Part shown: piece after piece, positions 33,392 to 47,782 of the stretch
Layout: the number at the start of each line of letters is the position of its first letter
Numbering within the stretch: the first letter of the stretch is position 1
Assembly (NCBI GenBank): GCA_030390025.1
Contig: JASTWF010000033.1
Span: forward strand, 4,652,001 to 4,716,000
Source of the DNA: Squalus acanthias
Lineage: Eukaryota
Reading direction: 5' to 3'
DNA length: 64,000 nucleotides
Made by a program: the position numbers and the translations under genes
Notes under the pieces: model-generated
Seen by the model: only the letters and a program-made list of their open reading frames with translations
Databases searched by the model: none
Told to the model about the DNA's origin: nothing

Positions 33392-33616
33392 CACTAATCC
33401 CGCTGGGGACGTTGCGCATCGGGCATAGGAGAAGACCTATCTGGCCACGGACTCTCTCTCTGTGTGGGATTACCCGCTAATCGACGAGCTAGACAGGGAC
33501 TTTTGGCAACAGCTGCTGCCGTCCAAGGGAAATGACGAAAACCGGGGAGTTTTTGAGGCACAGGTCGACACAAGGGAGAGTCACAGAAACACGGGGCACG
33601 CAAAATCACCCCACAC

Positions 33617-36600
33617 TGGCGAATCCGGGATTAGTGTCTTTGCATCAGGTGCTGGCGATTCTGGGATTAGTGTCTATGCATCAGGTGCTGGCGAGTCTGG
33701 GATCAGTCTCTTTGCATCAGGTGCTGGCGAGTCCGGGATTAGTGTTTTTGAATCAGGTGCAGGCGAGTCCGGGATTAGTGTCTATGCCTCAGGTGCTGGC
33801 GAGTCCGGGATTAGTGTTTTTGCATCAGGTGCTGGCGAGTCCAGGATTACTGTGTATGCATCAGGTGCTGGCGAGTCCGGGATCAGTCTCTTTGCATCAG
33901 TTGCTGGCGAGTCCGGGATTAGTGCCTATGCATCAGATACTGGCGATTGCGGGATTCCTGTCTTTGCATCAGGTGCTGGCAAGTCCGGGATTAGTGTCTG
34001 TGCATCAGGTGCTGGCGAGTCCGGGATTAGTGTCTTTGCTTCAGGTGGTGGCGAGTCCGGGATTAGTGTCTATGCATCAAGTGCTCGCGAGTCCGGGATT
34101 AGTGTCTTTGCATCAGGTGCTGGCGAGTCCGGTATTAGTGTCTTTGCATCAGGTGCTGGCGAGTCCGGGATTAGTGTCTTTCCATCAGGTGCTGGCGAGT
34201 CCGGGATTAGTGTCTATGCATCAGGTGCTGGCGAGTCCGGGATTAGTCTCTTTGCATCAGGTGCTGGCGAGTCCAGATTAGTGTCTTTGCTTCAGTTGCT
34301 TTCGAGACCGGGATTAGTGTCTTTCCATCAGGTGCTGGCGAGTCCGGGATTAGTGTTTTTGAATCAGGTGTAGGCGAGCCCGCGATTAGTGTTTTTGCAT
34401 CAGGTGCTGGCGAGTCCGGGATTAGTGTCTTTGCATCAGGTGCTGGCGAGTCCGGGATTAGTGTCTTTGCATCATGTGCTGGCGAGTCCGGTATTAGTGT
34501 CTATGCATCCGGTGCTGGCGTGTCCGGGATTAGTCTCTTTGCATCAGCTGCTGGCGATTCCTGGATTACTGACTTTGCATCAGGAGCTGGCAAGTCCGGG
34601 ATTAGTGTCTTTGCATTAGGTGCTGGCGAGTCCGGGATTAGTGTATTTGCATCAGGTGCTGTCGAGTCCGGGATTAGTGTCTTTGCATCAGTTGCTGGCG
34701 AATCCGGTATTAGTGTCGATGCATCAGATGCTGGCGAGTCCGGGATTAGACTCTTTGCATCAGGTGCTGGCGAGTCCGAGATTAGTGTCTTTGCATCAGG
34801 TGCTGGCGAGTCCGGGATTAGTGCATTTGCATCAGGTGCTGGCGAGTCCGGGATTATTCTCTTTGCATCTGGTGCTGGCGAGTCCGGGCTTAGTGTATTT
34901 GCTTCAGTTGCTGGCGAGTCCGGGATTAGTCTCTTTGCCGCAGGTGCTGGCGAGTCCGGGATAAGTGTTTTTGCATCAGGTGCTGGCGTGTCCGGGATTA
35001 GTGTTTTTGCATCAGGTACAGGCGATTCCGGGATCAGTGTCTATGCATCAGGTGCTGTCGAGTCCGGGATTAGTGTCTATGCATCAGGTGCTGGCGAGTC
35101 CGGGATTAATGTATTTGCATCAGGTGCTGGCGAGACCGGGATTAGTGTCTTTGCTTCAATTGCTGGCGAGCCCGGGATTAGTGTCTTTGCATCAGGTGCT
35201 GGCATGGCCGGGATTAGTGTATTTCCATCAGGTGCTGGCGAATCCTGGATTAGTGTCTTTGCATCAGGTGCTGGCATGGCCGGGATTAGTGTATTTCCAT
35301 CAGGTGCTGGCGAGTCCGGGATTAGTGTCTTTGCATCAGGTGCTGGCATGGCCGGGATTAGTGTATTTCCATCAGGTGCTGGCGAGTCCGGGGTTAGTGT
35401 CTTTGCATCAGGTGCTGGCGTGTCCGGGATTAGTTTTTTATGCATCAGGTGCAGGCGAGTCCGGTTTAGTGTCTTTGCATCAGGTGCTGGTGAGTCCGGG
35501 ATTAGTGTCTTTGCATCAGGTGCTGTCGAGTCCGGGATTAGTGTCTTTGCATCAGGTGCTGGCATGGCCGGGATTAGTGTATTTCCCTCAGGTGCTGGCG
35601 AGTCCGCGATTAGTTTTTTTGCATCAGGTGCTGCCGAGTCCGGGGTTAGTGTCTATGCATCAGGTGCTGGCGAATCCGGGGTTAGTGTCTTTGCATCAGG
35701 TGCCGGGCTGTCCGGGATTAGTTTTTTATGCATCAGGTGCTGGCGAGTCCGGGATTAGTGTCATTGCATCAGGTGCTGGCGATCTGGGATTAGTGTCTTT
35801 GCATCAGGTACAGGCAAGTCCGGGATTAGTGTCTTGGCATCAGGTGCTGGCGAGTCCGGGATTAGTGTCATTGCATCAGGTACAGGCGAGTCCGGGATTA
35901 GTGTCTTGGCATCAGGTGCTGGCGAGTCCGGGATTAGTGTCATTGCATCAGGTACAGGCGAGTCCAGGATTAGTGTCTTGGCATTAAGTGCTGGCGAGTC
36001 CGGAATTAGTGTCTTTGCATCCGGTGCTGGCGAGTCCGGGATTAGTGTCTTCACATCAGGTGCTGGCGAGACCGGGATTAGTGTATTGGCATCAGGTGCT
36101 GGCGAGTCCGGGATTACTGTCTTTCCATCAGGTGCTGTTGAGTTCGGGAATAGTGTCTATGCTTAAGTTGCTGGCGAGTCCGGGATTAGTGCGTTTGCCT
36201 CAGGGGCTGGCGAGTCCGGGATTCGTGTCTATCCATCAGGTGCTCGCGAGACCGGGATTAGTGTATTGGCATCAGGTGCTGGCGAGTCCGGGATTACTGT
36301 CTTTCCATCAGGTGCTGGCGAGTCCGGGATTACTGTCTTTCCATCAGGTGCTGGCGAGTCCGGGATTAGTTTCTTTCCATCAATTGCTGGCGAGACCGGG
36401 ATTTGTGTCTATGCATCAGGAGCTGGCGTGTCCGGGATTAGTGTTTGTGCATCAGTTGCTGGCGAGACCAGGATTAGTGTCTTTTCATCAGGTGCTGGCG
36501 AGTCCGGGATTACTGTCTTTCCATCAGGTGCTGGCGAGTCCGGGATTACTGACCTTGCGTCAGGTGCTGGCGAGTCCGGGATTAGTGTTTTTGCATCAGG

Positions 36601-37125
36601 TGCTGGCGAGTCCGGGATTAGTGTCTATGCATCAGGTAATGGCGAATCCGTCATTACTGACCTTGAATCAGTTACAGGCGAGTCCGGGATTAGTGTCCTT
36701 GCATCAGGTGCTGGCGAAATCGGGATTAGTGGCGTTGCATCAGGTTCTGGCGAGTCCGGGATGAGTGTATATGCATCAGGTGCTGACGAGTCCGGGATTG
36801 GTGTCCTTGCATCAGGTGCTGTCGAGTCCGGGATTAGTGTCTATGCATCAGGTGCTGGCGAGTCCGGGATTAGTGTCTATGCATCAGGTGCTGGCGAGTC
36901 CGGCATTAGTGTCTCTGCATGAGGAGCTGGCGAGTCCAGGATTAGTGTCAATGCATGAGGAGCTGGCGAGTCGGGGATTAGTGTCTTTGCATCAGGTGCT
37001 GGCGAGTCCGGGATTAATGTCTATGCATCAGGTGCTGGCGATTCCGGGATTAGTGTCCATGCATCAGGTGCTGGCGAGTCCGGGATTAGTGTCTATATTC
37101 AGGTGCTTGCGAGTCCGGGATTATT
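33617..37125. repeat. 36-bp minisatellite (GGCGAGTCCGGGATTAGTGTCTTTGCATCAGGTGCT)n
   Basis: Directly visible ~3.5-kb array; gives the GESGISVFASGA and LHQVLASPGLVS periodic ORFs. Confidence 0.97.
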
Positions 37126-37127
37126 GA

Positions 37128-39760
37128 AATCGCAGAGGACCACGGGCCACTACTGGACGAGCTACTAATGCTGTTGGGGGAGCCAGGGCTTAAGGCAAAC
37201 ACTAAGAAAGCACAAATAGAACAGGAGGAGGTGAAATTATTAGGATTGACGATGAGGGCAGGGGTAAGGGTTTAAGACGAGGCGAAGAGGAGGGCAGTAC
37301 AGGAATTACCCGCTCCAAAGAGTGTAACTGGGGTGAGATCTTTTCTTGGTATGACAGGGTATTGCAGGGATTTTATTGAAGGCTATGCAGCTACGGCAGC
37401 CCCTTTGCTTAGGCTCCTTAGGAAAGGAGTCGGATGGGAATGGGATGAGTGTTGTAAGGAGGCATTTACTCGCCTAAAGGAAAATTTACAAACTGCACCC
37501 GCACGAGGAGCAATAAACGGAAACGAAGATTTTTAACTGTTGGTAGCAGCTACTTGGAATAGTTTGAGTGCAGTGTTGCTCCAAGAACGACATGACAAGT
37601 TGAGGCCAGTGGCTTATGTCTCCCGAGTCCTGACAGATGTAGAGAGGGGTTACTCGAACTGTGAAATAACCTTTTGGCGATCTATTGGGCCGTCAAACGT
37701 TTCCAATTATTTACGGGGTCATTTTTAGTAACCTTAGTGACATGTCATAACCCGACATAGATGCTATTGGACGGGAGGATAAAAGATGGGACAGTGAGTA
37801 GCAGTCGTATTGCCGGCTGGACATTGCTAGTCTCCCAGATGAACCTGAGGGTGGAAATATTGGCGGAACCTAAGCTGGCCTTGAACATGATTTATCCAGG
37901 GACGAATCACGTGTGCACGGTCGAAGGGGTATGGGATGTAGACGTGGGATTCCGGGCCGGGCAGCATCCTGCAGGGACAGATATATACGTGGATGGGTCC
38001 AGCTCGGTGAGAGGGTAGGTCAGGGTGTGGAATTTATGACCCAGGGGCTGGTATAGAGAAAGCCATCAAACTCCCCTGCACACTGAGCGCACAGCAGGCC
38101 GAGCTGGCGGCTGTAGCTTATGTGGTCACGCATCCCGAGGAACTCTCAAACACCTACACATTATGCTCAGACTCGATGTGTTTCCGTGCAATTCTTGCAC
38201 TGAATATATGGCAAATATGGGCTGAACGAGTAATCAAGTCCACTGACAGGAAACCATTAATATTCTCCGCAATGCTGAACACAGTCCTGGGCATTACGGG
38301 CAATTAAGTGGAGTATTACATTCAAAAAGTAAAGGCGCACTCAAAAACCGAGCCTAAATGGAAAAGCCGACGAGTTGGCAAAAAAGGGGGCCTGGGAGGG
38401 AGTACTTTGTGAATCGTACATATCTGGACCGATCGCGGCCATAAGGGATATGGAGGGCCCACAGGAGGTGAAGTTGCCCCCAGACCTGACCCAGGTTCAA
38501 GCACAAGATAAGGTTTTAAAAACCGTGATTAAGAATAGGATACAAGCGGAACCAATTGATGGTCCTTTTGGAGCAGCAGATATAGTGCTCAAAGAGGGCA
38601 TGCTGTTTAAAGGGGAAAGGTGGATCGTGCCCACACAGTACCGGGAGGAATTTATGCAGCTAGCTCGCGGGGGTCCGGGAGCTGGACATCCAGAGCCTAA
38701 ACTACCTGGAAGAAAGTGGAGGAGGTGGGTTGGTGGCCTCATCTCAGGGAAGAGGTGAAGGAATATTGCAGTGAGTGCCTAGTGTGCGCTGCGAATAATC
38801 CAGACCCCCAACGTAGAAAGGCACCGTTGGGACACGTTAGCAGTTTTAGAGGGATCATGGCGTTCTACATAAATAGACTTCATTGGGCCCGTGCCCACCA
38901 CAAAAGCTGGCAACAATTATTGTCTGGTGTTGGTGGACGTTTTCTCTAAGTGGGTTGAGGCCTTCCCTTGTCGAACAGCCACAGCGTTAAACACGGCTAA
39001 GATCCTAGTAAGGGATGTGTTCTCCCGATGGGGATTGCCCCAGGTAGTGGAATCAGATCAGGGGAGCCATTTCACAAGACAAGTCATGTGCACCACTCTG
39101 AAACTTTTAGGGATACGGGGAAAATGGCATGTGGCCCACAACCCCCAATCATCGGGAATAGTGGAAAGGATGAACTGGACCTTAAAGGTAAGGCTTAGGA
39201 AGGAGATAGGGGGGTACCCGAAGAAATGGGACAAGGTCCTGCCTCTAGTTCTCATGAATATCAGGGCCAGCCTCTCCAAAAGCACAGGACACTCTCCGTA
39301 TGAACTGATTATCGTTTGGGCGATGAGGACCCCGTCTCATGTGTTGGTACCGGTCCTGACCGAAGTTCAAATGAGGGAGGTCAACCGGGATACATTCGTA
39401 AAAGATCTGTATGAGACCTTGAGGAAAGTACAATGGGAAGCTGCAAATAACATGGGAAGCCAGCACCAGAAGAATAGAATGCTGTTAGAGCCACATAAAG
39501 TACATGAGTGGAAGTTAGGGGACCAGGTCATGGTGAGAAATTATGCCCGGGTAGGGGCTTTCGAGCCACTGTACATGGGGCCGTACAGTATAGTGGACAA
39601 GGCAGGCCCTTTGGTTTACGCAGTGCAGCTCCAAAACGGAAAAAGTGGTTTCACATTAATCAATGTAAACGCTATGACCCCGGGAAGAGGGGAATAAAAC
39701 GAACCAGAGCCCAGGGAACGATCATGAGTTTGACCAATGTAAGTATATCTCCCATGTTGT
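37128..39760 (+). pseudogene. pol: Endogenous retroviral pol remnant: RT C-terminal part, tether, RNase H, integrase
   Basis: VRSFLGMTGYCRDFI; tether LLQERHDKLRPVAYVSR; RNase H IYVDGS, AQQAEL, CSDS, KVKAHS, KADELAK; zinc finger GH...WWP...CSECLVC; integrase LVDVFSKWVEAFP, SDQGSHF, PQSSGIVER and YMGPY. Several stops and frameshifts. Confidence 0.93.
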
Positions 39761-39984
39761 GAGATGATGACGAAAACCCAGAGAGCGGAGCGGTGAGAAG
39801 GAGTAGTCGAACACCCCGACCTAGGGTGCCTTGGACGCCTCCTCACACACCGACCCCGAGCTGCAAGAGGTCCCAACCGGACAGTAAGGAAAAAGGGACG
39901 TGGCGATTGCAGCAATCACAGCATGTATAATATGTATATAAGCTAAGTTTGAACTGTGCAGGGAAGACCTCTCACAGAGCGTTG

Positions 39985-40010
39985 CTATTTTTCTTTTCCT
40001 TTATTTGCAG
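39985..40010 (+). promoter_or_regulatory. Putative env splice acceptor
   Basis: CTATTTTTCTTTTCCTTTATTTGCAG, 25 nt upstream of the env ATG at 40036. Confidence 0.65.
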
Positions 40011-40035
40011 AGGCGAGTCGAACTTAGGGCGCAGG

Positions 40036-42811
40036 ATGGAATGCACTCTGTGGCTGGGCCTGTTGGTAATCCTGGTCAGATCAGGACAGATGGAGCGAGG
40101 CGACATCGAGATGTCATTTACTTACGGGTGTATGGGAGGAGCCGGGCTCACCGTAACACAGGCAGGTAGAGCACGGGGCACTGACGGTAGAGCTACATAC
40201 TTCCATGAAGGAGTATGGCCAGGTTGGTCGGGGTCAAATTCCACTAAATATTCCAATTACACTGGTTAAAAATTCGGTGAAGCATCAGTGCCCTGCCCAA
40301 ATTAAATATCCCCACCAAAAAGGTACTGGTGAACGAGGGAAGGCAAGTGTGCCTAGAATGCTAGGGAAGTATCTCCTTGGGATGGTGGTAGTGGCTACGG
40401 AAAACAGACAAGGCAAAGGGTAATGAATCCACGGATTGGGAAAGATTGGGGAACGACTCCTACAGATCGATTGTGGGGACAAAGGGGGGTGTAAAATTAT
40501 GTTGGGACAAGTGGTGGAAGGAGGAACAAGGGATTTATGTGTGTGTGGGAGGATCGAAACGTAAATGCCAGAAGGGCGTGTCCATCGCTTTTAAACGGCA
40601 ATGGCAAGATTTCGGGTCTGGAATAGGCTGGACTCAGAGTTTCGATGCGTGTGTGGTCCCAGATCCTCCAAACGCTGTCAATGCTACCGAACTAGTAGCA
40701 CACGATAAGAAGCCCATACCATCAGCCCCAAAGACACGGGATAAAGAGCTTAAGTGCCACATAATGACACCCGGACCGAGGAATGGGTTAGTACTGATTC
40801 CAACAGGGAAGGTGCTGTACCATGACGTGCATTACAAGGTAGCATCCGTTATCCTTAATTTGACAAAGGTACGGCTACGCCAGTGGTGCCCACCTGAAAC
40901 GAAAAATTTTTACGAGAAAATATTAAAAGAAATGTTCCGGCAATTGGAAACATAGAAACATAGAAACATAGAAGATAGGAGCAGGAGTAGGCCATTCAGC
41001 CTATCGAGCCTGCTCCGCCATTCGATGAGATCATGGCTGATCATCCAAACTCAGTACCCTGTCCCTGCCTTCTCTCCATATCCCTTGATACCTTTAGCTT
41101 TAAGAAATATATCTAACTCCTTCTTGAATATATTTAATGAATTGGCCTCTACTGCCTTCTGTGGTAGAGAATTCCATAGGTTCACCACTCTTCAGGTGAA
41201 GAAATTCCTCCTCACTCAGTCCTAAATGGGTTACACATTATCCTTAGACTGTGACCCCTGGTTCTGGACTCCCCAGCCATCGGGAACGTCCTTCCTGCAT
41301 CTAGTCTGTCTAGTCCTGTTAGAATTTTATAAGTTTCAATGAGATCCCCTCTCATTCTTCTAAACTCCAGTGAGTATAAGCCCAATCGACCCACTCTCTC
41401 CTCATACGCCATTCCTGCCATCCCGGGTATCAGCCTGGTGAATCTTCGCAGCACTCTCTCCATGGCAAGAACCGCATTCCTCAGATAAGGCGACCAAAAC
41501 TGCACACAATACTCAAGATGTGGTTTCACCAAGGCCCTGTACAACTGCAGCAAGACATCTTTGTTCCTGCAGTCGAACCCTTTCGCTACGAAGGCCAAAA
41601 TACCATTTGCCTTCTTAACCGCCTGCTGCACCTGCATACTTACCTTCAGCGACTGGTGCACAACGACACCCAGGTCTCGTTGCACTTCCCCTTCTCCCAA
41701 TCTATTGCCATTCAGATAATAATCTGCCTTCCTGTTTTTGACACCAAAGTGGATAACCTCGCCCTTATCCACATTATATTGCATCTGCCATGCTTCTGCC
41801 CAATCACCCAACCTGTCCAAATCATACTGGAGTTTCTCGGCATCCTCCTCACGGCACACACTCCCACCCAGCTTTGTGTCGTCAGCAAGAGATATTACAT
41901 CCAATGCCATCGTCCAGATCATTAATATATATTGTGAATAGCTGGGGTCCTAAGACCGATCCCTGCGGCACCCCACTAGTCACTGCCTGCCACTCGGAAA
42001 AAAAACATTTATTCCAACTCTTTGCTTTCTGTCTGCCAACCAGTTCTCGATCCAAGTCAATACCTTGCCCCCAAACCCATGTGCATTAAATTTACACGCT
42101 AATCTCTTAAGCGGGACCTTATCAAAAGCCTTCAGAATGTCCAAAAACACAACATCCACTGGTTCTCCCTTATCCATTTTCCCAGTTACATCCTCAAAAA
42201 ATTCCAGTAGATTAGTCAAGCACGATTTGCCTTTTGTAAATCCATGTTCACTTTGTCCGATCCTGTCACTGTTTTCCAAGTGCTCTGCTATTACATCTTT
42301 TATATTGGACTCTGGCATTTCCCCCACTACGGATGTCAGGCTTACTGGTCTATAATTCACCGTTTTCTCTCTACCACCTTTTTTGAATAGTGGGGTAACA
42401 CTACGAGTTGAACTATGGGGAAGAAAGTCGGAAGGATTTGTATAAACGAGCTGACAGCGGTCACACCGCTTTGGGGAGACGGAAGAGGACATTGATCAGT
42501 GACGCTGCCAAGGTGTTTAATACAGGGACGGCACTGGTCAATAGTATAGATGATACGCAGCTGCAAAGGAAGGTCAATACCTAAGGGATCAGATAAAGAG
42601 GGTACTGGGGGAGGAAAACAGAGAAACGTGAGAGAGATCAGGGAAATGATCACCTTGGTGGGACATTGAGTTTAATATTGAAATTCCTTCCTGGATCTGA
42701 ATTGCCTCATATATATTGATAATTGTGCAATTAATTATGGTGTTCTATCTGCTCAGGCTATCATCTAAAACGAAACGAAGGGTAAAAGGGGAAAAACAGG
42801 AAAGACTGTAG
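40036..42811 (+). pseudogene. env: Envelope glycoprotein remnant (class I fusion type), split by the CR1 at 40948-42400 and internally deleted
   Basis: Signal peptide MECTLWLGLLVILVRSG and N-glycosylation sequons. The halves join as EMFRQF|YELNYGEE. RRKR at 42477-42488 precedes TLISDAAKVFNTGTALVNSID; TM IASYILIIVQLIMVFYLL at 42701-42754 is followed by a basic tail. Confidence 0.8.
40948..42400 (-). mobile_element. Young CR1, 5'-truncated, inserted in env
   Basis: Minus ORFs 41212-41922 and 41980-42400 encode RT; (CATAGAAA)n tail at 40948. Confidence 0.95.
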
Positions 42812-42920
42812 AAAGGGGATTTGGGATTTTAGAATCAAATGTATAGACTGTGTAAAAAATCTGAGATTTGTCTGCGACCGACAATGCACCTTCCACGGCA
42901 GAAGAATGGACAGAAGTAAT

Positions 42921-43679
42921 GGGCCAGAAATTCGGCTCTCCGGCTTCCCGCGGGTGCAAGAATCGCTCACATACTTACCTACCGCGCCTGCAGTTGTGCT
43001 TCGGGCCCGCTTGGAATTCGGCTCCTGGGCCTCCTGCAGCTGCCGGCGCGCAGTGCTTGCGTATTCCAGCGTCGCAACTAGTTCCAAGCGTCCCCTGGGA
43101 TAAGTGGGCCATGGAGAGCCAATCAGAGCAGGGAATCTTCAATCATAGATTTTGACAGGAAGACCTGTCAAATCTATGAATAGAGATCGGACCCAAAACC
43201 TCACTAAAACTTCAAATAAATAAAAAAAAAATCACATCTTTAAAAAACTATAAATTACATAAATTAAATACATTAAATAAAAGTTTAAATTTTTTACAAA
43301 TTTAATTACTCTTTTTAACGGTGTTAAAAATATACTTACCTTTCTTTAAAGAATGTAAAAAAGATAAACCTGTTGAAAAAATGTTTAAATTGCACTTAAT
43401 TCACCAATTACCTTGTTAAAAGCAGTCATTTTGCCTCATTTTTTCCGCGCAGCTTCACCGTACTTACACTCACGGAGAAACCTGGAAAAAAAACGAAGTT
43501 TGCTGCGTGTGCACTGACTCTCCGGTGCACGCGTTCGACTTCTGAACCCCTTCCTTCAGGGGAACAGAATTTCCGTTTTCCAGCGCATGCGCAGTGCATG
43601 CGCGAAACCGGCACTTTCGTTGGGTCTACGGGTGAGTACCCAGCGTGTACTCACCCGTGGAGACCCGAGTTTCTGTCCC
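42921..43679. mobile_element. MITE copy 2, inserted between env and the PPT
   Basis: TIRs GGGCCAGAAATTCGG / CCGAGTTTCTGTCCC; flanks AAT/ATT. Confidence 0.85.
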
Positions 43680-44036
43680 ATTCACTCTAATATAAGAGAT
43701 ATTAAAGGGGGGAGATGTAGGATCCATTCCTCCACCCCACGGTAAAAATATTGCACTATGAAATATAAAAATCCAGAAGTGCACAGCCCGCAAAAAGATC
43801 TGGGCAATAAAGGATTAATTCAAACATTGCAGCCGAAACTAAGAACCTTCAAGAGACTGGATCACAGACAATCCAGTATCTGAATGAGAACATCCGCATA
43901 TTCATTTACCTTAAGGCGTTACATTGTCCAGCTTAGACCATGGCCCCCGAATAACGAGTTTCAGTGCAGGCCTAGAAAATGGGCCGGGCCTTGAACCTTT
44001 TGAATACGAATGCCAACAGAAACCAACAACTACGCA

Positions 44037-44957
44037 CATAGAAACATAGAAATATAGAAGATAGGAGCAGGAGTAGACCATTCGGACCCTCGAGCCTGTT
44101 CCGCCATTTAATGCGATCATGGCTGATCATCCAAATTCAGTAACCTGTCCCTGCTTTCTTCCCATAGCCCTTGATCGCTTTGGCCTTAAGACATATATCT
44201 AACTCCTTCTTGAATATATTTAATTAATTGGCCTCAACTGCGTTCTGTGGTAGAGAATTTCACAGGTTCACCACTCTCTGGGTGAAAAAATTCCTCTCAT
44301 CTCAGTCCTAAATGGCTTACACCTTATCCTCAATCGCGATATCGGGTTCATGTCACGATACAGAACGTGACTTGACATCATGGCCGGTCTTCCCAGGTGT
44401 TTTTTTTTTTTGTTTTGTTTTTTAAAAAGGCTAACACAAGAACACAAATTGAAAGGATATGCAGCCAGCAGGTGGTTTGACACGTTGGACCCCCTGGGAC
44501 ACATCTCATTGTCATGGTTGTGCTCTTTGTTGTAGCGAATAATGTGAATAGATTTTGTCTGGGTTTAAATTGTGAATTCTGGGAGATTCTCTCATTGCTA
44601 ACTTACCTGACGAAGGAGCGACAGCTCCGAAAGCTTGTAAAATTAAATAATTCTGTTGGACTATAACCTGGTGTTGTGCGACTTCTCATTTTTGTCCACC
44701 CCAGTCCAACGCCGGCATCTCCACATCATGACCTTATCCTTAGACTGTGACCCCTGGTTCTGGACTCCCCCACCATCGGGAACATCATTCCTGCATCTAG
44801 TCTGTCTAGTTTGTTAGAATTTTATAAGTTTCAATGAGATCCCCTCTCATTCTTCTAAACTCTAGCGAATACAAGCCCAATCGACCCAATCTCTCTTCAT
44901 ACGTCATTCCTGCCATCCCAGGTATCAGTCTGGTGAATCTTCGCTGCACTCCCTCCC
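44037..44957 (-). mobile_element. CR1 3' fragment inside the LTR
   Basis: CR1 tail and 3' ORF2 sequence, itself split by a Penelope fragment. Confidence 0.9.
44331..44730 (+). mobile_element. Penelope family A 3' terminal fragment
   Basis: Reverse complement of ~13294-13685; perfect 10-bp duplication ACCTTATCCT at 44321-44330 and 44731-44740; hammerhead-like motif at ~44607-44636. Confidence 0.92.
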
Positions 44958-45579
44958 TACATGCAGTCACTTGGGGAAGATTGCTTTGTAAGAAAGATAT
45001 CTCAAATCAATGGACGATACCAGGAACACTTCACACAATTTGATATGGTCATCGCATGCTCAGAGGGGGCCCGGAAATAATGAAGATTGATTTTGGTTTA
45101 AAATAAGATCACTTCGAAGATGATGGGTGGGAAGCCGACGGCAAAAGAGCGAACAGAAAGATTCAGGCCTACAATTAACTCCAAGAGACAGCCAATCTGG
45201 AGTGGTAATTGTATGTTTCAGTCAAATCATAGAGAGGGTTTTTATGATTGAGTCTGGGTAGGTTTGCGAGTTTCAGTCAGATCACAATAAGGGTTTTGTG
45301 ATTGAGTCTGGGTAACTTTATATGTAACAGTCAAATCATGTACGGGTCATATTGTATCGATGCAAATGACCCTTGAGTAGGGGTGTGTATTTTGGGGTTG
45401 TCAGCCTGATATAAATCGTAGGGATTTATACTGGGGTAGTAATTGTGTGTGTGTGTTAAATAAATGAACTAATCAAAGATTGAGCCAAAACCCTGTGCCG
45501 TGTGTATTTTGTTCTTAGAAATCTTGACGTCCAAGAACTGTGTGTAACGGGGGACCGGTATCGGAGGAAACCACGTACA

Positions 45580-47782
45580 CCTGAGATCTTCCTGCTCTGA
45601 GTGTTCTGCTCAGTACCACACCGGGTGAGAGAGGCCAGCTCACTCAGCACAGGCCAAGCATCGAGACTGGGATCTTCCTGCTCTGTACGTGGGGCTCAGT
45701 AGCACACCGGCTGAGAGAGGACAGCTCACTCAGCAGAGGCCGGGGATGGAGCCTGGGATCTTCTTGCTCTGGGTGTGGTGCTCAGTACCATACCCGGTTG
45801 AGAGCAGCTCACACAGCACAGGGCGGGGATGTAGCCTTGGATATTCCTGCTCTGTGTGTGGGGCTCAGTACCAAACCGGGTGAGAGAGGTCAGCTCAATC
45901 AGCACAGGCCGGGATGGAGCCTGGGATCTTAAGGCTCTCTGGGGCTCAGCACCACACCGGGCGAGAGAGGTCAGCTCACTGTGCAGAGGCCGGTCATGGA
46001 GCCTGGGATCTTACTGTTCTGTGTATTTCTCAGTACCACACCGGGTGAGAGAGGGCAGCTCACTCAGCACAGTTCGAGCATGGAGACTGGGATATTCCTG
46101 TGCTCTGTGTGTGTTGGGCTCAGCACACAATGCATGAGAAAGGCAGCTCACTGTGTACAGGCCGGTCATGGAGCCTGGGATCTTCCTGCTCAATGTGTGT
46201 CTCAGTAACACACCCGGTGAAAGAGGGCCGCTCACTAAGCACAGGTCGAGCATGGAGACTGGGATCTTCCTGTCCTCTGTGTGTGGGGCTCAGTAGCACA
46301 ACGAGTGAGAGAGGGCCGCTCACTCAGCACAGGTCGAGCATGGAGACTGGGATCTTCCTGTCCTCTGTCTGTGGGGCTCAGTAGCACAACGGGCGAGAGA
46401 GGGCAGCTCACCGAGCACAGGTCGAGCAAGGAGACTGTGTTCTTCCTGTGTTCTGTGTGTGTGGTGCTCAGTACGACGCCGGCTAAGGAAGGGCAGCTAA
46501 CCGAGCACAGACCAGGCATGTAGCCTGTGATCTTCCTGCTCTGTGTGTGGGGCTCAGTACCACACCGGGTGCGAGAGGTCAGCTCACTTTGCACAGGCCG
46601 GGCATTGAGCCTGGGATCTTCCTTTCCTCTGTGGGTGTGGCTCAGTACCACACCTGGGTGAGAGCAGCTCACACAGCACAGGCTGATAATAGAGCATGGG
46701 ATCTTCCTACTCTGTGTGTGGAGCTCAGTACCTAAGGTGGTGAGAGAGGGCAGCTCACTCAGCGCAGGCCGGGAATGGAACATGGAATCTTCCTGCTCTG
46801 TGTGTGTGATGCTCAGTTCCACACGGGGTGAGAGAGGGCAGCTCACTCAGCACATGTCGAACAAGGCGACTGGGTTCTTCCTGTGCTCTGTGTAAGTGGT
46901 GCTCAGTACCACACCGGTTGAGAGAGGGTTGCTCACCGAGCACAGGCCAGGCATGCAGCTTGGGATCTTCCTGCTCTGCGTGTGGAGCTGAGTACCACGC
47001 CGGGTGAGATAGGGCAGCTCAATTTGCAAGAGGCTAGGCATGGAGCCTGGGATCTTCCTTTCCTGTGTGTGTGTGGCTCAGTACTACACCTGGGTGAGAG
47101 CAGCTCAAACAGCACATGCCGATAATAGAGCATGGGTTCTTCCTACTCTGTGTGTGGAACTCAGTACCTCAGGTGGTGAGAGAGGGCAGCTCTCTCAGCA
47201 CAGGCCGGGGATGGAACCTGGAATCTTCCTCCTTTCTGTGTCTGGTGCTCAGTACCACACAGGGTGAGAGAGGGCAGGTCACTCAACACGGGCCAGGCAT
47301 GGAGCCTGGGATCTTCCTGCTCTGTGTGTGGGGCTCAGCACACAGTGGGTTAGAGAGGTCAGCTCACTGTGCACAGGCCGGGCATGGAGCCTGGGATCAT
47401 CCTGCTCTGTGTGTGGGGCTCAGTACCACACCGGGTGAGAGAGGTCAGCTCACTGTGCACGGGCCGGGCATGGAGCCTGGGATCATCCTGCTCTGGGTGT
47501 GGTGCTCAGTACTACACCGGGTGAGAGAGGGCTGCTCACTCAGCACATGTCGAGCATGGAGACTGGGATCTTCCTGTCTTCTGTGCGTGTGGTGCTCAGT
47601 ACCACACTGGGTGAGAGAGGGCAGCTCACTCAGCAGAGGTCGAACAAGGAGATTGGGATCTTCCTGTGTTCTGTGTGTGTGGTGCTCAGTGCCACACTGG
47701 GTGAGAGAGGGCAACTCACACAGCGCAGTCCGGGGATGGAGTCTGGGATCTTCCTGCTCTGTGTGTGCGGCTCAGTTCCACA
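45580..47782. repeat. ~85-bp diverged tandem repeat, possibly derived from a tRNA-SINE head
   Basis: Unit CCTGGGATCTTCCTGCTCTGTGTGTGGGGCTCAGTACCACACCGGGTGAGAGAGGGCAGCTCACTCAGCACAGGCCGGGCATGGAG. Confidence 0.9.

Follow-up and report, generated by a model that had tools for sequence, protein, structure and literature searches.

A 5'-truncated endogenous retrovirus in Squalus acanthias, probably a dead member of a high-copy family with an F-type envelope

The window analysed here, a stretch of 64,000 nucleotides from contig JASTWF010000033.1 of Squalus acanthias, carries a retroviral fragment on the forward strand at 37126–45579, as delimited by blastn against fuller copies of the same family in the same genome. 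These limits are nearly identical to the 37128–45579 of a preliminary description made from the letters alone. Read across its insertions, the fragment starts with the C-terminus of reverse transcriptase (RT) and continues through tether, RNase H, and integrase to env, a polypurine tract, and an LTR (Table 1). Apart from its proposed splice acceptor before env, that description had given the same order, which Pfam, blastn, and tblastn confirmed.

Table 1 Features of the provirus, its insertions, and its flanks (window positions).
Feature	Position	Strand	Basis
36-bp satellite, 97.5 copies, adjoins 5' truncation point	33616..37123		Tandem Repeats Finder
RT C-terminus (end of palm, thumb, connection)	37126..37536	+	blastn vs fuller copy L001; tblastn with L001 pol residues 160-339
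Tether (degenerate Ty3-type RNase H-like domain)	37537..38009	+	RT_RNaseH_2 E 8.3e-8 at 37537-37728; RT_RNaseH E 8.4e-7; tblastn
Second (added) RNase H, two frames	38011..38450	+	PF00075 E 0.0072 at 38011-38307; tblastn
Integrase and pol tail	38701..39903	+	Integrase_H2C2 E 1.7e-8; rve E 3.1e-13; tblastn
env, N-terminal part	40036..40945	+	ORF 39931-40269; tblastn vs L010/L001 env
Insertion A: 5'-truncated LINE, (CATAGAAA)n-type 3' tail	40946..42400	-	RVT_1 E 9.3e-12; breakpoints vs empty site in L001
env: RRKR putative cleavage site, fusion peptide, start of heptad repeat A	42401..42614	+	ORF, blastn, tblastn
env, C-terminus: heptad repeat B, membrane anchor, short tail	42615..42832	+	tblastn with L001 env residues 580-657; family Env alignment
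Insertion B: 762-bp non-coding interspersed repeat	42921..43684	+	genome copies 89-100% identical
Polypurine tract AAAGGGGGGAGA	43704..43715	+	read from sequence; directly 5' of LTR
3' LTR, first part, begins TGTAGG	43716..44030	+	matches both LTRs of C6 copy
Insertion C: fragment of same LINE family as A	44031..44962	-	blastn and breakpoint analysis
Insertion D, 400 bp, nested in C	44331..44730		10-bp target duplication ACCTTATCCT; absent from paralogue
3' LTR, second part, ends ...TACA at 45579	44963..45579	+	blastn; read from sequence
86-bp satellite, 25.5 copies, adjoins LTR end	45580..47782		Tandem Repeats Finder

The provirus begins just 3' of the YVDD position of the fuller copies, with positions 162–204 of the RVT_1 profile matching window 37090–37275. 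In-frame stops lie within the RT part at 37273–37275 and 37534–37536, where the ORF ends, and the tether carries a further stop at 37726–37728 and a frame change near 37670. The two RNase H-related domains of the preliminary description are both present; the added one is weak in the window, compared with E 9.4e-18 for RNase_H in the fuller copy L001 (RT_RNaseH_2 E 1e-23). The integrase retains an H2C2 zinc domain (WWP...CSECLVC), a DDE core, and an SH3-like C-terminus with GPY, and the previously noted WWP and GPY motifs were found in window ORFs. Its longest open piece spans 38873–39697 (274 aa), with frame changes near 38701, 38904, and 39556–39688, and in the integrase tree it grouped with its own family at a support of 100. 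With at least three in-frame stops and about six frame changes in pol, the window copy is dead.

The N-terminal part of env has a start codon, a signal peptide MECTLWLGLLVILV, and a cysteine-rich surface region, with a frame change near 40296. After 42614, ~987 bp of env are deleted (corresponding to L001 3891–2905). The polypurine tract is conserved in the fuller copies L001 and L003, and the LTR (TG...CA) is split into two pieces by an insertion.

Four nested insertions interrupt the provirus, two of which are fragments of one LINE family with a tail of 8-bp repeat units. The genome search with insertion B scored 40 of 5825 candidates and listed 42 rows; almost every row covered the full query length, and those at 100% and 99% represented the window copy itself and the paralogous one. 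Insertion B had no Pfam match. The nested insertions of the preliminary description are real, but its MITE and Penelope labels are unsupported, since no terminal inverted repeats were found in the insertions examined, including insertion B, and the Pfam search found no Penelope-type domain in them. A paralogous copy with 98.4–98.6% identity lies 166 kb upstream, and the entire provirus block is a segmental duplicate. The env deletion, the stops and frame changes in pol, and the duplication were not part of the preliminary description.

Fuller copies in the same genome are organized as LTR-gag-(in-frame TGA)-pol-env-LTR over ~9.5 kb. They encode a Gag with a CCHC knuckle (zf-CCHC E 2.1e-5) and a Pol with protease, RT, tether, added RNase H, and integrase. 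At all 12 gag-pol junctions matched by the search (11 elements), pol kept to the reading frame of gag and was separated from it by a single TGA followed by CTG, CTA, or TTA, so readthrough is presumed. The LTR pair of one fuller copy was 95.2% identical over 965 bp and was flanked by a CCTT target duplication. Gag, PR-RT, RH-IN, and env occurred in order at eight of 12 env-anchored loci, and there were 17 adjacent pairs between the integrase and env match lists; the co-occurrence of env and pol, on which the preliminary description had staked its reading, was therefore found. Genome searches scored 141 of 16,842 candidates for integrase and 67 of 12,953 for env (56–100% identity), and the family is an abundant, high-copy endogenous retrovirus (ERV). 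In L001, no ORF of at least 150 aa was found between env and the LTR, a gap of only ~120 bp.

In the family Env, the signal peptide is followed by a large N-terminal part at the surface and an RQRR or RRKR site (by alignment and motif scan, the L010 Env has RQRR at residue 327 and the window copy RRKR); beyond this site come the fusion peptide, both heptad repeats (A and B), and the membrane anchor. The gamma-type CX6CC motif was absent from all five env ORFs tested, in agreement with the preliminary description. We modelled the Env as a monomer from 49 sequences (mean pLDDT 72). Foldseek returned 238 matches at E ≤0.001, the best being hPIV3 F (E 6.9e-11), with TM-scores to the best match of only 0.39/0.49; the best 50 of the 238 were all paramyxo- or pneumovirus F proteins. 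The 16 best VIA rows were all F proteins or foamy Env, with Z-scores of 11.8 for NDV F over 367 residues and 8.3 and 7.8 for foamy Env, and Atlas gave PF00523 clusters at a score of 0.93. As the earlier reading of the locus had supposed, the model thus predicts an F-type class I fusion glycoprotein fold and not a gamma-type one.

The likeness to the F proteins and foamy gp130 extends over the predicted ectodomain fold (Foldseek probability 1.00; VIA Z 7.8–11.8 over 275–367 residues) and the succession of putative furin site, fusion peptide, and long heptad repeat A. However, sequence identity is only 7–15%, there is no Pfam match, and the F2 part of F proteins is smaller than the surface part of the shark Env. 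PF00523 gave no sequence match for any of 12 family Envs (E up to 10) or 20 Env homologues (E up to 0.1). The only PDB sequence match of the Env profile was the foamy-virus gp130 (8rm1_D, E 0.0095), and this weak link is the sole one at sequence level for the shark Env family. Of the 20 homologues examined, out of 56 matches, 18 had a named source: 12 were from cartilaginous fishes, four from frogs, and two from coelacanth. Frogs hold both this type of Env and the lokiretrovirus Env.

To place the family, we built pol trees by 'quick' searches with SH-aLRT as the only support; they contained no snakehead retrovirus (SnRV), foamy, ERV-L, alpha, beta, delta, or lenti Pol sequences. Two Pols (P0013 and P0015) served as verified lokiretrovirus references; their 11–15-residue peptides occur 25–41 times in the supplement of PMC7947760, where all the passages displayed belong to lokiretrovirus Pol consensuses. 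In the RT, integrase, and concatenated trees, a branch with SH-aLRT 98–99 divided the shark family, on its canonical-retrovirus side, from both lokiretrovirus Pols. The clade containing the family (SH-aLRT 98–99) also included frog, coelacanth, bird, and gamma/epsilon-like ERVs. RT identity was 50–54% to frog and coelacanth sequences, 35–36% to lokiretroviruses, and 33–39.5% to gamma/epsilon-like sequences, and the closest pol relatives of the family are frog, coelacanth, and bird ERVs.

The preliminary description had proposed a lokiretrovirus, possibly of an uncharacterised shark lineage. The family does share with lokiretroviruses (Wang and Han 2020) the LTR-gag-pol-env-LTR plan, the tether with added RNase H, an H2C2 integrase, and an F-type Env in which a signal peptide, an RX(K/R)R site, a fusion peptide, a coiled coil, and a membrane anchor are all present. 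Lokiretrovirus Pols were also the second-best scoring group after the frog and coelacanth sequences (510–543 bits, 32% identity, 93–94% of query), and in the integrase tree, which had no sequence for NYNRIN, with CGIN1 the nearest relative expected of a lokiretrovirus integrase, their integrase stood beside the frog/coelacanth group (SH-aLRT 85), with the shark integrase in another clade (95). A tether plus second RNase H is, in addition, a feature of canonical retroviruses. Against these likenesses stand the separating branches and the AU test, which rejected a joint shark and lokiretrovirus clade (p 0.0395 for RT alone, p 1.55e-7 for 988 columns). The RT motifs differ as well: the shark family has LDISNGFWSIPL and LPQGFHNSPSIF, the same as SnRV, whereas lokiretroviruses have SGFWT and PFGY.NSPAEF. 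The Env is likewise different in lacking a PF00523 sequence match and in its much longer N-terminal part, with ~330 residues before RQRR, in contrast to the short N-terminal part and RPKR|FLGA... junction of the printed frog lokiretrovirus Env consensuses. None of six cartilaginous-fish genomes was lokiretrovirus-positive in the lokiretrovirus paper (supplement Fig. S1), Chiloscyllium punctatum among them, yet this species carries a homologue of the shark Env. We therefore reject the lokiretrovirus assignment, which does not survive the refuting condition set in the preliminary description, on the pol tree position, AU test, and RT motifs, and regard a shark lokiretrovirus lineage as hardly credible. 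A foamy-like ERV related to Spumaretrovirinae (FLERV type), a kind described for cartilaginous fish and frogs, would account for the gp130 sequence match, the Z-scores to foamy Env, the PFV integrase as best solved integrase match (100 bits), and the NGFW motif common to foamy and foamy-like RTs. Foamy-virus Gag, however, has no Cys-His knuckle (PMC2717909), and the shark Gag has one. No family protein matched Gag_spuma, Spuma_A9PTase, or Foamy_virus_ENV in Pfam. Foamy viruses are not known to have pol in frame with gag after a lone stop codon; the shark gag-pol arrangement, like its Gag, is not foamy-like. RT-RNase H scores were about equal for MLV (215–219 bits) and foamy virus (187–212 bits), and a hand-counted RT block was closer to SnRV (38/59 identical) than to feline foamy virus (26/55). 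We regard a foamy-like ERV as very improbable.

The closest named virus appears to be SnRV (clade 'Huo', Xu et al. 2018; CmiERV lineage I, Han 2015; bird OVEX1), an affinity suggested by motifs and hand counts. The two share the RT blocks LDISNGFWSI, QYTW..LPQGFH.SP.IFH, and LQYVDD, a Gag zinc knuckle, and gag and pol in one frame with a stop codon between them; RT identity was ~46% by hand count on published supplementary alignments. Of the reference RTs shown there, only SnRV, ZFERV-2, and CoEFV had the NGFWS word (9/9 places). SnRV differs in its stop, a UAG that is read through according to a passage of PMC13517186, as against TGA in the shark family, and in its complex genome with accessory ORFs, for which the shark family has no room. 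That simple genome, the narrow set of named Env sources, and the presumed SnRV-like sequences forming a grade rather than a clade in our trees would also fit a distinct, deep-branching lineage among the canonical-side retroviruses, common to sharks, frogs, and coelacanth, with its own F-type Env and no special tie to SnRV. We consider this unlikely, as the RT blocks matched SnRV best among the named viruses with printed sequences compared, and the trees of PMC4422223 group SnRV with chimaera ERVs that are about as long as the shark family (9.56 kb). The same source describes SnRV-like ERVs in the elephant shark, and a passage of PMC6001957 reports the SnRV-related clade from all vertebrate classes. 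Cartilaginous-fish hosts are common to the SnRV-related ERVs and the shark family; the pol relatives found for the latter come from frogs, coelacanth, and one bird.

Taken together, the region is probably a dead copy, truncated at its 5' end, from a high-copy ERV family with an F-type Env and a canonical-side pol, SnRV being the closest named virus. The family would belong to an SnRV-related lineage already reported in a chimaera. Its working form, as judged from the fuller copies, would have been an LTR provirus whose Pol was presumably made by stop-codon readthrough at the single TGA, and whose separate env, probably expressed by splicing, would have encoded a class I fusion glycoprotein that may have been cleaved by furin and fusogenic. 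The window copy would have been stripped of gag, protease, and the greater part of RT, received insertions of LINEs and other repeats, lost ~1 kb of env, and decayed by stops and frameshifts; as the last step, the damaged provirus would have been copied with its satellite flanks by segmental duplication.

An F-type Env on the SnRV-related lineage seems to be unreported so far. The SnRV-related group of sharks, skates, coelacanth, and frogs may constitute a third retroviral lineage with an F-type envelope besides lokiretroviruses and foamy viruses, its Env family being distinct from the lokiretrovirus Env, a tentative proposal on which we are almost evenly divided. If true, common descent across a large part of Retroviridae would be a likelier origin for the F-type fusogen than a single capture, which would bear on the question raised by the link between foamy Env and F proteins and on the four scenarios of Wang and Han.

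The retroviral fragment in the window is best read as a decayed copy of an endogenous retrovirus (ERV) family that would be related to snakehead retrovirus (SnRV) and carries an F-type envelope. A stop-to-stop scan of 35–48 kb of the window found retroviral pol pieces on the forward strand, and the limits and damage of the copy were set by blastn against fuller copies from the same genome, among them the C3 copy, L001. Its LTR starts with TGTAGG at 43716 and ends with TACA at 45579. The blastn limits of 37126 and 45579, together with the LTR ends, therefore make the coordinates of the preliminary description (37128–45579) correct to two bases, and both the Pfam domains and the blastn matches confirmed its observation of a retroviral fragment.

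Features of the truncated provirus and its flanks in the window
Feature	Position	Strand	Evidence or remark
36-bp satellite, 97.5 copies	33616-37123		brackets provirus fragment, 5' side
RVT_1, last 40 profile positions	37090-37275	+	Pfam
RT C-terminus into env	37126-40945	+	blastn, 92.8% to L001
RT_RNaseH_2 and RT_RNaseH	37537-37728	+	Pfam, E 8.3e-8 and 8.4e-7
RNase_H, weak match	38011-38307	+	Pfam, E 0.0072
Integrase_H2C2	38701-38949	+	Pfam, E 1.7e-8
rve	38873-39697	+	Pfam, E 3.1e-13
Foreign DNA (insertion A)	40946-42400	-	blastn break against L001
env, continued	42401-42614	+	blastn
env end and 3' untranslated part	42612-42920	+	blastn
Foreign DNA (insertion B)	42921-43684		blastn
Polypurine region and LTR	43685-44030 and 44963-45579	+	blastn; foreign DNA (insertion C, 44031-44962) between
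Polypurine tract AAAGGGGGGAGA	43704-43715	+	immediately 5' of LTR
86-bp satellite, 25.5 copies	45580-47782		brackets provirus fragment, 3' side

The window copy begins at L001 pol residue 160, shortly past the YVDD motif (residues 151–154), and has lost gag and protease together with the catalytic core of RT. Its pol is interrupted by in-frame stops at 37273–37275, 37534–37536 and 37726–37728 and by about six frame changes, the longest open piece being a 274-aa integrase core. At its N-terminal end, the env retains the start codon and signal peptide (from 40036) together with a part rich in cysteines. Also preserved are the fusion peptide with an RRKR site and, at the C-terminus, heptad repeat B, the anchor and the tail. 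The middle of env, corresponding to about residues 256–579 of the L001 Env, is gone; in blastn, ~987 bp of env (L001 3891–2905) were absent after 42614. A separate in-frame env deletion was seen in the C6 copy (L003 4134–4264), where heptad repeat A is joined to the region preceding heptad repeat B; it differs from the deletion in the window, so the family acquired env deletions on at least two occasions.

Insertions A and C belong to one LINE family in minus-strand orientation; they match RVT_1 (E 9.3e-12) and have a tail of 8-bp repeats, a type of tail from which we take the LINE to be CR1-like. Insertion B is a 762-bp non-coding repeat. A genome search with it gave at least 42 rows (5825 candidates, 40 of them scored); identity was 89–100%, and almost every row covered the full query. 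The copy in the window itself and its paralogue occupy the two top rows. A perfect target duplication of 10 bp, ACCTTATCCT, flanks insertion D (44331–44730), which is 400 bp long, lies inside C and has a T-rich run close to one of its ends. The insertion resembles a SINE and is left unclassified. No terminal inverted repeats were found in the insertions checked, and no Penelope-type domain was found in the insertions by Pfam. The two bracketing satellites are open in several phases over long frames, and a six-frame scan could take them for genes. Positions 36641–46996 of the window recur 166 kb upstream on the same contig (L005/L006 on C2561) with 98.4–98.6% identity, including the truncated provirus, insertions A–C and the satellite flanks, and are thus part of a segmental duplication. 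Since the paralogue shares the satellites and insertions A–C, the block was duplicated after the provirus had decayed; insertion D is absent from the paralogue.

Within the 3.7-Gb assembly, an integrase ORF search scored at least 141 matches (16,842 candidates; 67–100% identity) and an Env ORF search at least 67 (12,953 candidates; 56–100% identity); both lists are lower bounds, not copy numbers. By our own count, 17 of the Env matches listed adjoin an integrase match on the same strand. Twelve loci were chosen by the presence of env, and eight of them carried gag, protease-RT-tether, RNase H-integrase and env in that order, while three had gag and env with pol deleted and one had env alone. 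The pol-deleted loci, L007 (C8:43754801-43764800), L008 (C20:50025701-50035700) and L009 (C3020:80501-90500), showed 0% coverage of protease-RT, retained 7–24% of RNase H-integrase, and had open gag frames of 396–614 aa and open env frames of 822–832 aa. They look like a subfamily that lacks pol and spread by means of functions supplied in trans.

In the fuller copies, Gag has a CCHC knuckle (Pfam) and pol comprises RVT_1, RT_RNaseH_2, RNase_H, Integrase_H2C2, rve and an SH3-like end. At 12/12 junctions from 11 elements, counting those matched by the motif search in the fetched loci, gag is parted from pol by one in-frame TGA, the next codon being CTG, CTA or TTA. In the C6 copy the two LTRs, each of ~960 bp, share 95.2% identity; the copy also shows CCTT as target duplication and, 5 nt past its 5' LTR, a putative primer-binding site, to whose pattern no tRNA gene was matched. 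No 5' LTR of the C3 copy was found inside its fetched locus. Beside this provirus, a 288-aa open frame on the minus strand (L001 62–928) resembles, on visual inspection, a PIF/Harbinger-type transposase. Contigs from four runs guessed to be RNA covered env and gag of one copy with no env splice joint, and are uninformative on expression or splicing.

The preliminary description had proposed the element as a candidate lokiretrovirus. The paper that defines this group (PMC7947760) bases it on RT sequences forming the sister clade of all retroviruses; the accompanying traits are a tether in addition to RNase H, an integrase like that of CGIN1 and an Env similar to PF00523. As lokiretrovirus references we used two Pol proteins, P0013 and P0015, which carry lokiretrovirus RT words and whose 11–15-residue peptides occurred 25–41 times in the supplement of PMC7947760, the passages displayed all being lokiretrovirus Pol consensus; Ty3/gypsy served as the tree outgroup. 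Rows entered the trees only if at least 150 (RT) or 180 (integrase) columns were filled. The RT tree, of 52 rows and 264 columns, placed the lokiretroviruses (support 100) outside a clade (98) containing the shark family, sequences from frogs, coelacanth and birds, and gamma/epsilon-like ERVs. The same split was recovered, at 100 and 99, in an RT-tether-RNase H-integrase tree (988 columns) built from 31 hand-picked rows of the 52. The AU test rejected a clade uniting the shark family with the lokiretroviruses for RT (p 0.0395) and for the 988 columns (p 1.55e-7, log-likelihood loss 56.95). On pol, membership in the lokiretroviruses is thus contradicted by the two trees and the AU tests. RT of a family member was 50–54% identical to frog and coelacanth sequences, 35–36% to lokiretroviruses, 33–39.5% to gamma/epsilon-like ERVs and 27–31% to gypsy elements, and the window copy's own integrase nested within the family at 100 in the integrase tree. 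The portions of the PMC7947760 supplement consulted contained no exact peptide of the coelacanth or frog Pol, and none of six cartilaginous fishes was lokiretrovirus-positive in its Fig. S1 (fishes/positives: Carcharhiniformes 1/0, Orectolobiformes 3/0, Rajiformes 1/0, Chimaeriformes 1/0).

Among the named viruses whose printed RT sequences were compared, SnRV came closest. In the RT alignments printed in the PMC7947760 supplement, NGFWS was found in nine places, all SnRV, ZFERV-2 or CoEFV, and SnRV, the shark family and the coelacanth protein P0005 share LDISNGFWSI, QQYTW..LPQGFH.SP.IFH and LQYVDD. SnRV and the family member L010 had 115 identities over 252 aligned RT positions (~46%, counted by eye and not a tool result), and a hand count over the central RT block gave 38/59 for SnRV versus 26/55 for feline foamy virus. 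A foamy-like ERV is disfavoured, as the family's Gag has the CCHC knuckle, its gag-pol frame arrangement speaks against one, and no foamy Pfam families were matched; the sequences of the foamy-like elements CmiFLERV and XtrFLERV are not printed in the part of the PMC7947760 supplement available. Word-index protein searches listed no named SnRV Pol, and two candidates, P0207 and P0007, were excluded by their RT sequence. The SnRV-related reading fits published work on SnRV-like ERVs, as far as the accessible text of each paper goes: lineage I of the elephant-shark CmiERVs groups with SnRV, one copy being 9.56 kb (PMC4422223); members of "Huo", a clade related to SnRV, infect every major lineage of vertebrates (PMC6001957); and the bird ERV OVEX1, compared with SnRV throughout, has a putative Env without CWLC, CKS17 or CX6CC (PMC2717909). 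The shark family differs from SnRV, whose Pol is made through UAG readthrough (PMC13517186, in part), in having TGA as its gag-pol stop and no room for accessory ORFs.

A single Env gave no match in Pfam, PDB or word-index searches, and none of 12 family Envs matched any Pfam viral Env family at E up to 10. The 12 frames align well. All have a signal peptide and ~330 residues in which cysteines are conserved, then RQRR and a stretch resembling a fusion peptide. Two heptad regions, of which the first is long, enclose a beta part rich in cysteines and are followed by an anchor. CX6CC was absent from the five frames tested. When 1.84 billion representatives were searched with an Env profile, 56 proteins reached E ≤ 0.001, of which 20 were considered by host (cartilaginous fishes 12, frogs 4, coelacanth 2, unnamed 2). 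Some public gene models, P0151 (Heterodontus francisci), P0130, P0128 and P0124, have Env pieces fused to host genes (F-box, cadherin, zinc-finger and Niban-like) and probably reflect chimeric annotation across pieces of ERVs; the Env part of P0151 had a weak Baculo_F match (E 0.0011).

A first Env model from 12 close copies (pLDDT 29) was discarded and replaced by one from a 49-sequence alignment, which was usable (pLDDT 72, pTM 0.54). Against the PDB, the best 50 of the Foldseek list were all paramyxo- or pneumovirus F proteins, led by hPIV3 F (E 6.9e-11), with 238 matches at E ≤ 0.001. An independent structure search gave NDV F (Z 11.8, 367 residues), PIV5 F (Z 9.4), hMPV F (Z 9.2, rmsd 5.8 over 283) and foamy-virus Env (Z 8.3 and 7.8), with unrelated structures from Z 5.2 downwards. 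The only PDB sequence match of the Env profile was foamy Env (E 0.0095), and PF00523 and Baculo_F clusters at 0.92–0.94 in a language-model atlas were taken as a lead only. By the structure matches of its predicted model, the family Env is an F-type class I fusogen, and in this respect the preliminary description's assignment of an F-type Env holds.

On its own, the window copy is ordinary genomic debris, and both SnRV-like ERVs in cartilaginous fish and dead, insertion-riddled ERV copies were already known. We found no statement of an F-type Env on an SnRV-related lineage in the literature outside subscription journals and bioRxiv supplements, nor in the accessible parts of PMC11468914 (foamy Env), PMC12583693 (Viro3D), PMC12193657 (SnRV clone) and PMC13709493 (2026 review). 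An F-type envelope is not a lokiretrovirus marker, as one may occur in an element whose pol is of the canonical type; ERVs sorted solely on Env fold will therefore be mislabelled. If the association is truly unreported, three deep retroviral lineages (lokiretroviruses, foamy viruses and the SnRV-related lineage) share an F-type fusogen, which, if true, would make the origin of retroviral envelopes directly testable by Env and pol co-phylogenies.
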